NCBI GenBank assembly: GCA_964646505.1
Contig: CAZYEQ010000001.1
Location: 1,713 to 45,064, forward strand
Source: an uncultured Gammaproteobacteria bacterium
GTDB taxonomy: Bacteria; Patescibacteriota; Patescibacteriia; Magasanikbacterales; UBA922
Reading direction: 5' to 3'
DNA length: 43,352 nucleotides
Shown: positions 8,130 to 21,994 of the stretch, one piece after another
How positions within the stretch are numbered: the first letter of the stretch is position 1
Layout of the letters: every line of letters begins with the position of its first letter
Notes under the pieces: model-generated
The model's database searches: none
The model's input: only the letters and a program-made list of their open reading frames with translations
Told to the model about the DNA's origin: nothing
Position numbers and translations under genes: made by a program

Positions 8130-11057
8130 CTATACTTTTTGTACACCGAGTCTCACCTCTTCATTATCAACCTGAGCCACTTCGCCTACTCCTTCAAACG
8201 TGACCGTGCTCGCAAGTACCAGACGTTGCAATTCATCCAAAAACTGTTTTGCCACTCCTTCAACATACGCACTACCGCCGATATCAAGAGTGATCATTGA
8301 ATCGCGTGTTAAGCCAAGTTCTTTCCGTTTTTGATTTACGGTGCGCACTAGTTCGCGCAGAGTTCCTTCTTGTTTAAGCTCTTCAGTGATGGTGGTATCA
8401 AGTGATACCACATATACATCGTCTTTTTTGGTTAACCAACCCTTCCCCTCTTCAATCAACACAATCTCTTTCACGTTTAATTCATCTTTCACAATCTCTT
8501 GATATGGCTTTTCTGGAAGTGGTGAAACCGCGACCGCCTGAAGCACCTGACGCACTTTTATTTTGGCTTCGGCACGAAGCGCCAACCCACGTTCAACAAT
8601 TGCCCGTGCCTTTTCCATAGCCTCGAGACATGGTTTTGATGCTTCAAGTGTACCTCCCGAGGCTTCTGGCCAATATTCGAGGTGCACACTCTCTTTTGCG
8701 CCACCGGTTTTTTCATATACATACTCTGCAACAAACGGCACAAACGGCGCAAGCACACGAGAACATGTCTGCAACACGGTTTCGAGGGTTGAAAGAGCAG
8801 CCAGCGCATCGGCTGAATCTTCACCTTTAAACCGGTCGCGACTGCGACGGAGCCACCACGTAGAGAGCTCATCGACAAAGGCAGTAAGTGGACGAGCCGC
8901 TTCAGCCAAACGATATTTTTCAATGCCAGCCGTTACCTCACGAATGCATTCGTGCAGCTTTGCGATAATCCACGTATCAAGTACATGCTCACTTTGCACA
9001 CGCGCCTCGTGCTCTTTGGCGAATGATTCGTAAAACACCACCACGTTTACAAGGGTGTTCACGAGTTTACTAAATACTTCACGCACACCGGCTTCGGAAA
9101 AATTGAGATTTTCGGCGTGCATGACAGGTGAGGTGGCCAAATAATAGCGAATTGCATCAGCACCGTATTTTTCTATAAGCACGTTCGGGTCGGGGTAGTT
9201 CTTGAGCTTCTTACTCATCTTTTTTCCGTCTTCTGCAAGCACAATCCCGTTTACAATCACGTTTTTAAATGCCGGTGTCGAGGCTGTGACGGGAATGGAA
9301 GGATTGTCACCCATCGTGAGTGCGGTTGCAAGCACATGAAGCGTATAAAACCACCCGCGCGTTTGGTCTTGCGCTTCGCCAATAAATTCGGCCGGAAAAC
9401 TCGCCTCAAACTTTTCTTTATTTTCAAACGGATAGTGCATTTGCCCATAAGGCATAGAGCCAGACTCAAACCAGCAATCGAGCACGTCGGGAATACGCGT
9501 AAATCGTTTTCCATTTTTTTCAATCACCAGTTCGTCCACAATATGTTTATGCAAATCAGTCACTGTTTTTCCTGTAAGTGTCTCTAACTCTTTAACCGAG
9601 CCAACACAAAGCACTTCCCCATCGTCGCTTTTCCAGATAGGAAGTGGTGTTCCCCAAAACCGATTACGCGAAATGGCCCAGTCGTACGCCCCTTCAAGCC
9701 AGTTACCAAAACGACCGTCGCGCATGCTGCTTGGTACCCAGTTTGTTTTTTGGTTATTCTTAAGCAAGTCTTCTTTCATGTGTTCCACTTTCACAAACCA
9801 GCTTGATGTGGCGTAATTCAAAAGCGGCGTATCACAACGCCAACAGTGCGGATAGCTGTGTTCAATTTTTTTCTTCCCAAAAAGTTGCCCCTTGCCCGCC
9901 AGCCACTTAATAATAAGCACGTCAGTTGCTGTTGGGTCGTCTTTTGGTTTTACGTCAATACCTTGAAAATCGGTTACTTCTTTCGCAAACTTGCCGTCCA
10001 TGCCCACATGCTGCACGAGTGGCACCCCTTCCTTTTTCCCTAAGTTATAGTCGTCTTCACCATACGCTGGCGCAATATGCACGATACCCGTACCACTTTC
10101 GGTCGACACAAAATCGGCAGCCACAATGCGAAACGCGCGCTCGGTGTCTTTAAAATATGGAAATAATGGTTCGTATGCCACATCACGGAGCATCATACCA
10201 TTCACCTCTTCAAGCACCTTATATGTTTTGTTGTCGACCACTTCGTTCACTAAGTCTTTTGCCAAGAGATATTTTTTCTCATCGCCCTCAATTTCAATCA
10301 CCACATATTCAACCGCCTTGTGTACGGCCAAAAGCACATTACCAGGAAGGGTCCACGGGGTAGTGGTCCAGGCGAGGGCATACACATCGCCAGTTACCGC
10401 GAATACTTTTTCTGGGTTTTTGAGTTTGAATGACGCGTATACTGAAATATCTTTTACATCTTTGTATCCCTGTGTCACTTCAAAGTTAGACAGTGGAGTG
10501 ACACAATGCGGACACACATGCATGGCTTTGTGCCCTTCATAAATAAGTCCTTTTTTATACAATTCTGAAAATACCCACCACACACTTTCCATAAAGGGCA
10601 GGTCCATGGTCTTGTAATCGTTTTCCATGTCAATAAACCGACCCATGCGTTTCACGGTTTTTTTCCACTCATCGGCATAGGTGAGTACGGTTGCACGACA
10701 CGCTTCGTTAAAATTCGCGACACCGTACGCTAAAATGTCAGGGCGTCCGGCAAAGCCCTTTTCTTTTTCAATAATGTTTTCAATAGGAAGGCCGTGGCAA
10801 TCCCAACCCCAACGTCGCTCTACGCGGTACCCCTGCATGGTGTAATAACGACCAATGATATCTTTAATCACCCCAACCGAAAGGTGGCCGTAGTGCGGCA
10901 GGCCGGTGGCAAATGGAGGGCCATCGTAAAACGCATATGGTTTACCCTCCGGACGCTCTTCAACCGAGCGCTCAAAAATACGGCGATCTTCCCATTGTTT
11001 TTGGATCCGTTTTTCCTCTTCGTTAGCGTTGTATGGCATAGGTAAAATGGGCAACAT
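8130..11057 (-). CDS. ileS: isoleucine--tRNA ligase (type 2-like)
   Basis: 975 aa. Contains PPFATGLPHYGHL (HIGH-class motif), KMSKKLKNYP (KMSKS) and the CP1 editing region. Confidence 0.97.
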   Translation of the reverse strand: MLPILPMPYNANEEEKRIQKQWEDRRIFERSVEERPEGKPYAFYDGPPFATGLPHYGHLSVGVIKDIIGRYYTMQGYRVERRWGWDCHGLPIENIIEKEKGFAGRPDILAYGVANFNEACRATVLTYADEWKKTVKRMGRFIDMENDYKTMDLPFMESVWWVFSELYKKGLIYEGHKAMHVCPHCVTPLSNFEVTQGYKDVKDISVYASFKLKNPEKVFAVTGDVYALAWTTTPWTLPGNVLLAVHKAVEYVVIEIEGDEKKYLLAKDLVNEVVDNKTYKVLEEVNGMMLRDVAYEPLFPYFKDTERAFRIVAADFVSTESGTGIVHIAPAYGEDDYNLGKKEGVPLVQHVGMDGKFAKEVTDFQGIDVKPKDDPTATDVLIIKWLAGKGQLFGKKKIEHSYPHCWRCDTPLLNYATSSWFVKVEHMKEDLLKNNQKTNWVPSSMRDGRFGNWLEGAYDWAISRNRFWGTPLPIWKSDDGEVLCVGSVKELETLTGKTVTDLHKHIVDELVIEKNGKRFTRIPDVLDCWFESGSMPYGQMHYPFENKEKFEASFPAEFIGEAQDQTRGWFYTLHVLATALTMGDNPSIPVTASTPAFKNVIVNGIVLAEDGKKMSKKLKNYPDPNVLIEKYGADAIRYYLATSPVMHAENLNFSEAGVREVFSKLVNTLVNVVVFYESFAKEHEARVQSEHVLDTWIIAKLHECIREVTAGIEKYRLAEAARPLTAFVDELSTWWLRRSRDRFKGEDSADALAALSTLETVLQTCSRVLAPFVPFVAEYVYEKTGGAKESVHLEYWPEASGGTLEASKPCLEAMEKARAIVERGLALRAEAKIKVRQVLQAVAVSPLPEKPYQEIVKDELNVKEIVLIEEGKGWLTKKDDVYVVSLDTTITEELKQEGTLRELVRTVNQKRKELGLTRDSMITLDIGGSAYVEGVAKQFLDELQRLVLASTVTFEGVGEVAQVDNEEVRLGVQKV

Positions 11058-11272
11058 GCCCTATAAAAAACAAAAAACACGTGTATACGTGCGAGAATCC
11101 AGTATTCTGGATGGTACCATCTCACTTCTTGAAGGTAATCCCTCAAGCACTTTATTTGAAGCGCGGTAACGGGCGCACCCGAGAGAGTCTCTTTCCTTAT
11201 GAGGATTTCTTTCTCTCCACTCTTTTAGAAGAACTTTGGTGATAACAAAGCGTATATAGGTATACGTGGGTA
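11058..11272 (-). promoter_or_regulatory. candidate T-box riboswitch leader (tRNA-Ile sensing) upstream of ileS
   Basis: In RNA sense (minus strand), the antiterminator-like element at 11123-11093 is GAGA[UGGUACC]AUCCAG-AAUA-CUGGAUUCUC, a 7-nt UGGNACC bulge between two helices. Stem III-like hairpin CUUGAG-ggauuacc-UUCAAG (11147-11128). F-box CCGUUA (11172-11167) lies inside GGGUGCGCCCGUUACCGCGC, which could form a pseudoknot. AUC codon candidates are at 11234-11250 and 11194-11209. The ~215-nt leader length is typical. Confidence 0.6.
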
Positions 11273-11278
11273 TTTCCT

Positions 11279-11307
11279 ACTCTACGAGAGAATGTGGAAG
11301 ATGTCAA
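11279..11307 (-). promoter_or_regulatory. sigma70-type promoter for the ileS leader (TTGACA-N17-TAGAGT)
   Basis: Minus-strand read is TTGACAtcttccacattctctcgTAGAGT, directly after the upstream terminator. Confidence 0.5.
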
Positions 11308-11351
11308 GAAAAAAAAGAAGCGCCGGCCGGAAGGTGAGTTCCGGTCGGCGC
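11308..11351 (-). terminator. strong rho-independent terminator
   Basis: 13-bp GC-rich stem GCGCCGACCGGAA-cucacc-UUCCGGCCGGCGC with one mismatch, followed by UUCUUUUUUUU. Confidence 0.7.
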
Positions 11352-11383
11352 CGTACGTGTTCTCGAGCAGATGGTCCAGGGCC

Positions 11384-11701
11384 TCACTTCCCAGCAGTCG
11401 AACCGTCTCCTCCATCGCTCGTAGGCGGGTCAGCGGGCGAAATAGGCGTCTCTTGTTCTACCTGCGCCCCCCTGAGCTCATCTCTCACCTCGATGAGAGT
11501 CTCGAGCACTGGGGGCATGAACAGGTACCGAACCAGACCGGAGCCTGCAGCCGAAGATGCTTGGGTGGCGAAATAGCCGAGCGCCTCCCGTAACGCTGCC
11601 TGTTCTCGACTGAGTGCTTCTCCGGTCGTGGAGCGGATCTCGCGAGCTGCCTTGGTCAGTGCTGCCGCTATTCGCGGTTTTTCATCTTTCTTATCTGCCA
11701 A
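11384..11701 (-). CDS. small hypothetical protein (~105 aa, Ala/Glu-rich), start uncertain
   Basis: The in-frame TTG at 11701 follows an AGGA-rich leader. The gene is bracketed by its own promoter (11729-11757) and the terminator at 11308-11351. The track ORF extends to 11830, but that part overlaps the promoters. Confidence 0.45.
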   Translation of the reverse strand: MADKKDEKPRIAAALTKAAREIRSTTGEALSREQAALREALGYFATQASSAAGSGLVRYLFMPPVLETLIEVRDELRGAQVEQETPISPADPPTSDGGDGSTAGK

Positions 11702-11728
11702 TTTCTTTCCTTTTTCTCCTTCTCCTTT

Positions 11729-11757
11729 CTTATAGAGAAAAAAATGCCAATTGTCAA
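11729..11757 (-). promoter_or_regulatory. sigma70-type promoter (TTGACA-N17-TATAAG)
   Basis: Minus-strand read is TTGACAattggcatttttttctcTATAAG, followed by AAAGGAGAAGGAGAAAAAGGAAAG. Confidence 0.45.
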
Positions 11758-11780
11758 CAATTTTCACAAAAAACACTCCT

Positions 11781-11809
11781 TTGTTTTCCGAAACACACCC
11801 TGCTATACT
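11781..11809 (+). promoter_or_regulatory. promoter for rpiB (TTGTTT-N17-TATACT with TGn extended -10)
   Basis: TTGTTTtccgaaacacaccctgcTATACT, with ATG 11838 lying 28 nt downstream. Confidence 0.4.
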
Positions 11810-11837
11810 ACCGACAGATATTACAAACACCCATACT

Positions 11838-21669: not shown

Positions 21670-21741
21670 GTCCTTGTAGTTCAATGGATAGAACGAGAGC
21701 CTTCTAAGCTCTAGATCTAAGTTCGATTCTTAGCAGGGACA
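21670..21741 (+). tRNA. tRNA-Arg (anticodon UCU), CCA not encoded
   Basis: Manual cloverleaf. Acceptor GTCCTTG/CAGGGAC, D arm GTTC-AATGGATA-GAAC, anticodon arm AGAGC-CTTCTAA-GCTCT, T arm CTAAG-TTCGATT-CTTAG, discriminator A. Confidence 0.9.
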
Positions 21742-21866
21742 CAAGTCACATACTCTTGTAGAAACATATGTGAGCTCTGACCAGTCAAATACCATCATTT
21801 TTGCGGTACCACTTGAGATCCTTCGTGCTTTTGAACGTATAGGGAAACAGGAATAGCCCGAAACGA

Positions 21867-21919: not shown

Positions 21920-21994
21920 GGTGGCCATGGTGTAGTGGTAGCACAGGAGATTGTGGCTCTCCTAGTACGGGTTCAATCCCCGTTGGTCACCCCA
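21920..21994 (+). tRNA. tRNA-His (anticodon GUG) with encoded G-1 and encoded CCA
   Basis: G-1 plus acceptor GTGGCCA/TGGTCAC, anticodon arm GGAGA-TTGTGGC-TCTCC, T arm ACGGG-TTCAATC-CCCGT, discriminator C, then CCA. Confidence 0.92.

Follow-up and report, generated by a model that had tools for sequence, protein, structure and literature searches.

A candidate minimal T-box in the ileS leader of a Magasanikbacterales genome and its relatives across Patescibacteria

Results

The ileS leader and its structural elements

The stretch of DNA analyzed here, hereafter the window, is a 43,352-nucleotide piece of contig CAZYEQ010000001.1 from an uncultured member of the Magasanikbacterales (Patescibacteriota), whose genome comprises 93 contigs and 862,911 bases at 97.5% completeness. 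Its minus strand, to which all leader positions below refer, carries an open reading frame (ORF, 8130-11057) that matches isoleucine--tRNA ligase, ileS (TIGR00392, 898.3 bits, E = 5.2e-270), preceded by a sigma-70-type promoter and by a structured leader in which a T-box element can be delimited at 11091-11251 (table 1). Judging from the comparative evidence presented below, this leader is almost certainly a T-box that senses tRNA-Ile, most likely of an architecture in which an actinobacterial-type short Stem I is joined to a terminator, and we give a probability of about three in four to the fuller reading, in which it would sense uncharged tRNA-Ile(GAU) and end transcription when this tRNA is charged. 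All motifs claimed in a preliminary description of this DNA are present on the minus strand where they had been placed. Overall, the leader folds better than 200 of 200 shuffled versions (z = -2.90), and its centroid fold contains the specifier hairpin, Stem II, Stem III, and the two antiterminator helices, A1 and A2, with the bulge that separates them.

Table 1. Features of the ileS leader and its gene, in window coordinates
Feature	Position	Strand	Evidence
Ultrashort Stem I, GCUUUG-UUAUCAC-CAAAGU, with AUC in the apical loop (11243-11241) followed by the purine A (11240)	11233..11251	(-)	orthologues, covariation, paralogues
Small variable hairpin UCUU-CUAA-AAGA in the interval between Stem I and Stem II	11221..11232	(-)	centroid fold, alignments
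Stem II, lower helix AGAGA/UCUCU (11216-11212 with 11186-11182)	11182..11216	(-)	99.5% paired, 5/5 pairs change on both sides
Stem IIA/B pseudoknot and F-box, IIA CGG/CCG (11181-11179 with 11172-11170)	11162..11181	(-)	covariation
Stem III, CUUGAGG-GAUUA-CCUUCAAG, then purines GAA ahead of A1	11128..11147	(-)	motif search, centroid fold
Antiterminator (T-box sequence), A1-bulge-A2	11091..11125	(-)	covariation, bulge conservation
Putative intrinsic terminator GCACGU-AUAC-ACGUGU (11092-11077), then UUUUUGUUUUUU	11065..11092	(-)	sequence; statistics of copies
Sigma-70-type promoter TTGACA (11307-11302), 17 nt, TAGAGT (11284-11279)	11279..11307	(-)	10/12 consensus matches
ileS, putative regulated gene	8130..11039	(-)	TIGR00392 match; start from the N-terminus of relatives

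The decoding end of the element is a 6-bp hairpin whose core, CUUUG-UUAUCAC-CAAAG, lies at 11250-11234. A Stem I that is short and of the actinobacterial ileS kind had been proposed from the outset, and the orthologous leaders described below agree with it: all 13 present AUC and a purine in a loop of 5-7 nt, on a stem of 4-9 bp. Of the two AUC specifiers initially entertained, the one in this 7-nt loop is retained by the orthologues as well as by the comparison of paralogous copies, when the second, GAAAUCCU (11209-11202), sits within Stem II and hence is no specifier. The hairpin of the interval between Stem I and Stem II is found in most orthologues, L003, L015, and L017 being without it. 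In the window and in the same-genus copy L002, an extra 5' hairpin moreover lies inside an outer helix (CCAC at 11269-11266 with GUGG at 11220-11217 in the window, UCAU with AUGG in L002), a pairing whose basis is these two sequences only. As for the base of Stem I, an alignment read by eye has a GA after it in 9 of 14 copies and a GA before it in 5, and the reading of this base as a K-turn or "k-junction" was dropped, the signature being inconsistent among copies.

Downstream, the lower helix of Stem II encloses a purine-rich internal loop (AAGAAA/AAGAGAC) at the S-turn position, topped by an upper hairpin, UCCU-CAUA-AGGA (11205-11194). The S-turn (loop E) consensus of T-box Stem II is AGUA opposite GAA, and the loop strands in most of 78 distinct copies of the element are AAGAA(A/C) opposite AGUAGAN, the latter being found in 55 of the 78. 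The F-box CCGUUA lies at 11172-11167 and, as had been claimed, belongs to a conserved and covarying Stem IIA/B pseudoknot, albeit with a pairing of CGC in the loop (11175-11173) with GCG (11164-11162) rather than of GCGC with GCGC; in the 78 copies, the F-box is mostly CCGUAA or CCGUUA. Next comes Stem III, predicted to stand beside the antiterminator and replaced in most orthologues, as judged without a formal count, by a hairpin of variable sequence in the same position (L003 and L020 are without one).

The antiterminator core, GAGA[UGGUACC]AUCCAG-AAUA-CUGGAUUCUC, occupies 11123-11093. In full, A1 pairs GUGAGA with UCUCGC (11125-11120 with 11096-11091), the bulge UGGUACC lies at 11119-11113, and A2 is AUCCAG-AAUA-CUGGAU (11112-11097). 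The claim that UGGU suits a tRNA-Ile with discriminator A is borne out by the tRNA-Ile of the window genome, which has anticodon GAU and A73 and thus fits both the AUC specifier and the UGGU bulge; among the other tRNAs of this genome, the discriminator is A73 in Val, U73 in the Thr genes, and G73 in Ser(GGA).

Conservation and covariation of the leader family

We sought ileS loci in 40 relatives, 30 of which yielded one, and a search for TGGNACC recovered TGGTACC upstream of ileS in 13 of these 30, when we estimate that about 0.1 occurrence per 430 nt would be expected by chance. These 13 leaders share one common order of elements: promoter, specifier hairpin, helix around AAGAA(A/C)/AGUAGAN, pseudoknot, Stem III, antiterminator, and hairpin with U-tract. 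Their pseudoknot takes the form CGG(G)-loop-(C)CCG with UAA or UUA behind it, and the last loop bases pair with those 3' of UAA/UUA. From the sensing part of the 13 leaders, we built a covariance model, R1, of 163 positions and 27 pairs, which includes neither the pseudoknot nor the terminator. In the window genome, R1 has a single match, the ileS leader itself (97.6 bits, E = 1e-22); among the 30 relatives, it matches 14 ileS loci, the added one being L015, whose element lies ~450 nt upstream of its ileS match. More broadly, R1 is found once per genome in 74 of 107 members of the taxonomic family, and it is present in 82 of 151 genomes of the order (43/58 in family f1, 35/59 in f4, 3/7 in f8, and 0/26 in seven other families). 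In the samples taken at higher ranks, it occurs in 30 of 151 genomes of the class and 49 of 151 of the phylum, some genomes having 2-4 copies, and it is present at 40 of 80 named Patescibacteria ileS loci.

The helices were then examined in two alignments of copies, one of 14 copies and one of 78 distinct copies, the latter drawn from 80 loci chosen among ~190 so as to span family, order, class, and phylum. Both alignments were guided by the model and are thus biased toward its helices, plain MAFFT having misplaced Stem I in L003, L012, and L017. In the 14 copies, 94.5% of cells pair against 73.8% when shuffled (0/500 as high) and 31-47% when slid, and both partners change in 25 of 30 pairs; in the 78 copies, the corresponding values are 94.2%, 70.5% (0/500 as high), and 25-48%, with 28 of 30 pairs changing on both sides. 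The bulge, the F-box, and the AUC are likewise conserved, so that the check on orthologous leaders suggested in the preliminary description comes out in favor of a T-box, and its antiterminator with a UGGUACC bulge is both conserved (the bulge is UGGUACC in 71 of 78 copies) and covarying. Helix by helix among the 78 copies, Stem I is 97.6% paired with changes on both sides in 4/4 pairs, an outer helix 84.9% (4/4), A1 95.5% (5/6), and A2 94.4% (5/5). The pseudoknot, although left out of R1, is 90.5% paired in the 14 copies, with 2/3 pairs changing on both sides, and 86.2% paired in the 78 copies (3/3), where it appears in the compensatory versions CGC/GCG, GGC/GCC, AGC/GCU, and GGA/UCC.

At closer range, L002, whose isoleucyl-tRNA synthetase (IleRS) is 83% identical to that of the window, keeps all helices through compensatory changes: Stem I is GCUUUG/CAAAGU in the window and GCUCUG/CAGAGU in L002, A2 is AUCCAG versus AUCCC, and Stem III is different. 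Because these compensatory changes affect Stem I, Stem III, and A2, the structure would still be under selection. It should be borne in mind that related genomes are not independent.

From a taxonomic standpoint, L064, L066, L067, L085, and other loci encode IleRS proteins 60-83% identical to that of the window, and come from third-party annotation (TPA) records of metagenome-assembled genomes (MAGs) titled "uncultured Gammaproteobacteria" or "Pseudomonadales"; the taxonomy lines of these TPA MAG records are probably mislabelled, the ranking neighbours being titled Magasanikbacteria/Patescibacteria.

Specifier triplet and bulge base in paralogous copies

The copies found in the class and phylum samples are not all linked to ileS, which allows the loop triplet to be compared with the gene that lies downstream. 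From these samples, we took 50 matches, 47 of them distinct (L162=L173, L171=L187, and L149=L152 being counted once each), whose triplets are given in table 2.

Table 2. Apparent specifier triplet of distinct class and phylum copies, by downstream gene
Downstream gene	Copies	Triplet in the Stem I loop
ileS	15	AUC in 14; L191 without clear AUC
valS	18	GUC in 17; GUA or GUG in L150
aspS	4	GAC in L178 and L186; Asn codon AAC in L174 and L151
Asp-tRNA(Asn) ligase type	2	AAU-G in L182; L160 truncated
Aspartate aminotransferase	1	GAC
thrS	2	ACC; ACA (or AAC)
serB-like HAD phosphatase	3	UCC in L180; other two without clear triplet
GNAT gene	1	L183, no clear triplet
rplP	1	L159 (24.6 bits), probably a false positive

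On these counts, the loop triplet, as a putative specifier, tracks the downstream gene, and the variable base of UGGN mostly shifts with the expected discriminator: copies linked to ileS and valS have U, L178 and L155 (both GAC) and L180 (UCC) have C, and the two thrS copies have A. As related genomes are not independent, no P-values are given for this comparison, whose strength lies in the contrasts within genomes: G355, G382, and G490 each have an AUC copy before ileS and a GUC copy before valS, and G268 has an AUC copy before ileS and an ACC copy before thrS. Several items pull in the opposite direction, namely the ileS copy with no clear AUC, the two aspS copies with AAC, the bulge of L186, which is UGGU and not UGGC before an aspS gene with a GAC specifier, and the reliance on reading by eye for several Stem I loops that the model had misaligned.

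The paralogous copies also yielded observations of their own. In L174, L151, and L182, Asn codons (AAC, AAU) stand as the apparent specifier before aspS or Asp-tRNA(Asn) ligase genes, which suggests a non-discriminating AspRS put under the control of tRNA-Asn charging; such control would fit an indirect Asn-tRNA pathway. Downstream of L180, L179, and L185 lie serB-like HAD-IB phosphatases, and with its UCC (Ser) triplet and UGGC bulge, L180 hints that some Patescibacteria may regulate a serine-related phosphatase through tRNA-Ser charging. Two of the synthetase ORFs have unusual domain contents: at L152:401-2980 (minus strand; G243), the IleRS ORF contains a histidine-phosphatase/phosphoglycerate-mutase-like segment (residues ~505-686) between its IleRS-matching parts, which appears to be an inserted domain, and at L182:549-2387 (minus strand; G351), an ORF of the Asp-tRNA(Asn) ligase type ends with a Cys-tRNA(Pro) deacylase domain of YbaK/EbsC type (residues 462-604), which would make it a fusion of a synthetase and a trans-editing domain.

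The expression platform

The preliminary description had left the platform open while pointing to the hairpin and U-tract ahead of ileS, and the statistics of U-runs and hairpins among relatives make this putative terminator the most likely platform, although its mutual exclusion with the antiterminator is weak in the window. These statistics were drawn from 51 distinct ileS-linked copies, the duplicates L074 (=L004) and L085 (=L002) being dropped. A run of at least five U occurs within 60 nt of the model end in 48 of them, against a background of 24% for a 60-nt window, and starts 7-17 nt after A1 in 39, when the background for an 11-nt window is 4.9%; in the window, the U-runs that follow the hairpin extend to 11065. 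Among the 44 copies that were scored, a hairpin abuts the U-run in 33, and it takes at least 2 nt of the antiterminator 3' half in 23 and at least 4 nt in 15, with an automated score that errs where the first U-run falls inside the terminator (L113, L066). In L107, L098, L116, L105, and L084/L088, long terminators use the A1 3' strand as their 5' arm, and inspection of the sequences of L113 and L092 suggests the same long A1-based arrangement. The strong hairpin and U8 that follow the gene upstream of ileS indicate that this organism does use terminators of the kind. All in all, the output would likely be transcription termination via the short hairpin and U-tract after A1.

Several features of the platform nonetheless speak against such a switch. 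No hairpin abuts the U-run in 11 of the 44 scored copies, and the overlap is below 2 nt in 21. In the window, the terminator hairpin shares with the extended A1 helix the final two bases of the latter, GC (11092-11091), an overlap of 2 nt where many relatives have 4-10 nt. In RNAfold, antiterminator and terminator coexist in the window (3' domain of -15.5 kcal/mol), as they do in L002 and L020, and the predicted stability of the antiterminator exceeds that of the terminator, the opposite of classical T-boxes. Given the 2-nt overlap and this coexistence, mutual exclusion is weak in the window copy, for which switching is something we infer.

The best-surviving rival, which we nevertheless regard as unlikely, is a T-box with a translational output, in which tRNA binding would alter access to an AU/U-rich initiation region devoid of a Shine-Dalgarno (SD) sequence, the hairpin and U-tract being a ribosome landing or sequestering element. 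It can draw on the 2-nt overlap just described, on terminator hairpins that are short (3-6 bp) in the window's family, on an AUG lying only ~10-25 nt past the U-tract in many orthologues, and on a decoding module of the type described for translational actinobacterial T-boxes (PMC7583486). Yet there would be nothing to sequester: over the long ORFs of the whole genome, SD-like motifs are found at 40 of 363 starts versus 39 of 363 shuffled, and no SD is found upstream of ileS, so that translation initiation appears SD-independent in this organism and SD sequestration of the actinobacterial kind would be without a substrate. Moreover, the U-run keeps its place relative to the end of A1 (the 39 of 51 copies at 7-17 nt), whereas the distance to the AUG ranges from ~10 to >150 nt, and long terminators of the canonical type, formed with the A1 3' strand, occur in distant copies. 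Apart from this, the regions upstream of the ORFs of this genome are U-rich in general (33% T).

Considerably less probable is that the window copy is a decaying or constitutively "on" relic that no longer switches in its genus. What lends it some color is a set of peculiarities that count against a working element here: the S-turn strand AAGAGAC is the sole such sequence among the 78 copies, the GA...GA signature of a K-turn is missing from the base of Stem I in both the window copy and L002, the overlap with the terminator is the smallest, the antiterminator is stable in RNAfold without tRNA, and the R1 score of 97.6 bits falls in the lower half of the family. Against decay, however, the compensatory changes in L002 retain every helix; AUC and its purine, UGGUACC, the pseudoknot, and the U-tract are intact in the window; and A73 of tRNA-Ile still fits UGGU.

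Promoter, gene start, and surroundings

The promoter recurs among orthologues, TTGACA-17-TAnnnT being aligned in most of the 13 leaders, and transcription of ileS would start near 11272. The AUG of ileS had been placed at 11057, the mechanical start of the ORF; the ATG at 11039 is the more probable start, because the IleRS of relatives begins with ATGCCATACAAC (MPYN...). A small hairpin, GGGCAUGUUGCCC (11061-11049, minus strand), overlies the first ATG (11057). The genes for RsmE and RuvA lie downstream of ileS. On the other side, the region just ahead of the ileS promoter (11309-11350, minus strand) holds a strong GC-rich hairpin, GCGCCGACCGG...CCGGCCGGCGC, with CUUCUUUUUUUU behind it, which looks like the intrinsic terminator of the preceding ORF of 148 amino acids (11384-11830), for which no NCBIfam family was matched.

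The sole matches to Rfam at gathering level in the window are the plus-strand tRNA genes Arg(TCT) (21670-21742) and His(GTG) (21921-21994). Over the 501 bases of 10950-11450, Rfam otherwise gave five chance-level matches, which we rejected, two of them (PtaRNA1 and SrbA) being only the terminator hairpin of the upstream gene.

Discussion

A leader family below the reach of the Rfam model

The preliminary description had named a score below gathering with the Rfam T-box model RF00230 as an outcome that would refute its call, and this is literally the outcome obtained: RF00230 matches nowhere in the window at gathering, the segment 10950-11450 yields no match even at E <= 10, and the full genome is likewise devoid of matches at E <= 0.001, all of which counts against a T-box. 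This failure is a limit of the Rfam model and not of the element. On 5 of the 13 orthologous leaders, RF00230 gives full-length matches of 40, 35.3, 30.9, 24.7, and 19.2 bits, when gathering stands at 93, and these sub-threshold matches are an independent tie between the leader family and T-boxes. Because they fall below the gathering score, annotation misses the family. In the phylum sample, RF00230 matches 50 of 151 genomes at E <= 0.001 and exceeds 93 bits in only 5 of 151, meaning that the T-boxes of the phylum are not wholly invisible and that most are unannotated. That the leader would be a structured 5' untranslated region (UTR) with chance T-box-like motifs, or one bound by a protein such as IleRS with no tRNA sensing, has next to no probability in our view, for although the Rfam model has no match in the window and short motifs such as UGGNACC and AUC do arise by chance, covariation runs through seven helices with the pseudoknot included, the family extends across the phylum and is associated with synthetase genes, the triplet and UGGN base shift with the amino acid of the downstream gene, and RF00230 recovers orthologues over its full length below threshold.

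As to precedent, T-boxes had been described at the outset as not commonly reported in this lineage, and we found no paper joining T-box with Patescibacteria, candidate phyla radiation (CPR), or Saccharibacteria, in a search outside of which subscription journals lay; in a looser search, the CPR papers among the matches listed were all without the term "T-box". The main text of the TBDB paper (PMC7778990) names no candidate phyla, as far as its accessible portions go, and TBDB itself may list CPR entries. In the excerpts of a 2024 perspective on Patescibacteria, riboswitches figure only as a possible engineered tool and T-boxes are never mentioned. What is new here is thus a T-box of a known family in a lineage where it was not previously described, with a decoding module known from the actinobacterial short-Stem-I class.

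Relation to known T-box classes

According to the parts of PMC7583486 available to us, T-boxes with a short Stem I carry the specifier in an apical loop, their Stem II S-turn and IIA/B pseudoknot support the codon-anticodon duplex, and translational T-boxes have mostly been identified in Actinobacteria. In the same manner, PMC7778990 states, in the portions at hand, that the class II model of TBDB was applied only to Actinobacteria and to class I matches with a truncated Stem I, and that specifiers of NNC type are preferred. The class II ileS examples of Mycobacterium tuberculosis and Nocardia farcinica go back to Sherwood, Grundy & Henkin 2015, as cited in passages of PMC7583486 and PMC7778990.

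The Patescibacteria element resembles these actinobacterial class II ileS T-boxes in its apical-loop specifier, its short Stem I with no elbow-binding distal platform, the purine-rich internal loop of its Stem II at the S-turn position, its compact IIA/B pseudoknot with F-box, its layout of Stem III, A1, 7-nt UGGN bulge, and A2, and in having ileS as its main target, a likeness read from the architecture as described in the consulted parts of the papers. Unlike class II, a hairpin and U-tract directly follow A1 here, with no SD sequestrator and in a genome without SD use; in most Patescibacteria copies, a further small hairpin separates Stem I from Stem II within an outer helix; the K-turn signature is inconsistent among copies and absent in the window; and the compact design, hosted by Patescibacteria, also serves Val, Asp, Asn, Thr, and Ser genes.

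With the canonical T-box of RF00230 (Bacillus subtilis tyrS/glyQS type), it has in common the presumed logic of specifier-anticodon and UGGN-NCCA pairing, a near-consensus T-box sequence (GAA-GUGAGA-UGGUACC), the F-box, the pseudoknot, and Stem III, a putative terminator that would compete for the A1 3' strand, and NNC specifiers (AUC, GUC, GAC, ACC, UCC). In contrast, it has no long Stem I, internal specifier loop, AG bulge, or distal loop platform; its orthologues score 19-40 versus 93 bits with RF00230; and the terminators of the window's family are very short. The absence of a long Stem I is a further point against termination as the output, for transcriptional T-boxes generally require one, according to the consulted text of PMC7583486.

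Proposed mechanism

In the mechanism that we propose, the AUC in the apical loop of the 6-bp Stem I would pair with the anticodon of tRNA-Ile, and Stem II, through its S-turn position, together with the IIA/B pseudoknot would buttress the codon-anticodon duplex, as in actinobacterial ileS T-boxes, without a distal platform in Stem I to receive the tRNA elbow. The 3' ACCA of an uncharged tRNA would then pair with UGGU of the bulge and stabilize the antiterminator (A1-bulge-A2), when charged tRNA-Ile would bring no such stabilization, letting the hairpin after A1 and the U-tract end transcription before ileS. We infer both tRNA binding and termination as the output from the sequence and its relatives.

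Biological significance

Beyond the window, our observations raise the idea, which we hold to be only slightly better supported than its negation, that Patescibacteria possess a phylum-wide class of minimal transcriptional T-boxes, made of an apical-loop specifier, Stem II, a pseudoknot, and a very short intrinsic terminator abutting A1, and devoid of a tRNA-elbow platform. If true, this would imply that cotranscriptional tRNA sensing works without the long Stem I considered generally necessary, and the joining of a compact, "translational-type" decoding module to a terminator puts to the test the requirement for a long Stem I set out in the consulted text of PMC7583486. The compact class also bears on the relations among T-box classes, and it exposes an annotation gap, as 5 of 151 phylum genomes are recovered at RF00230 gathering, when at E <= 0.001 either model recovers 49-50. 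From a practical perspective, a T-box of ~160 nt with swappable specifiers would make an attractive native part for the emerging genetics of Patescibacteria. Above all, the presence of a putative tRNA-sensing leader in about one third of the sampled phylum genomes suggests that these amino-acid-auxotrophic epibionts tune their synthetases by tRNA charging and, if the class is real, it may constitute the main, perhaps sole, sensor of amino-acid status in these reduced, host-dependent bacteria, with ileS, valS, aspS, thrS, and serine- and aspartate-related genes as its targets.

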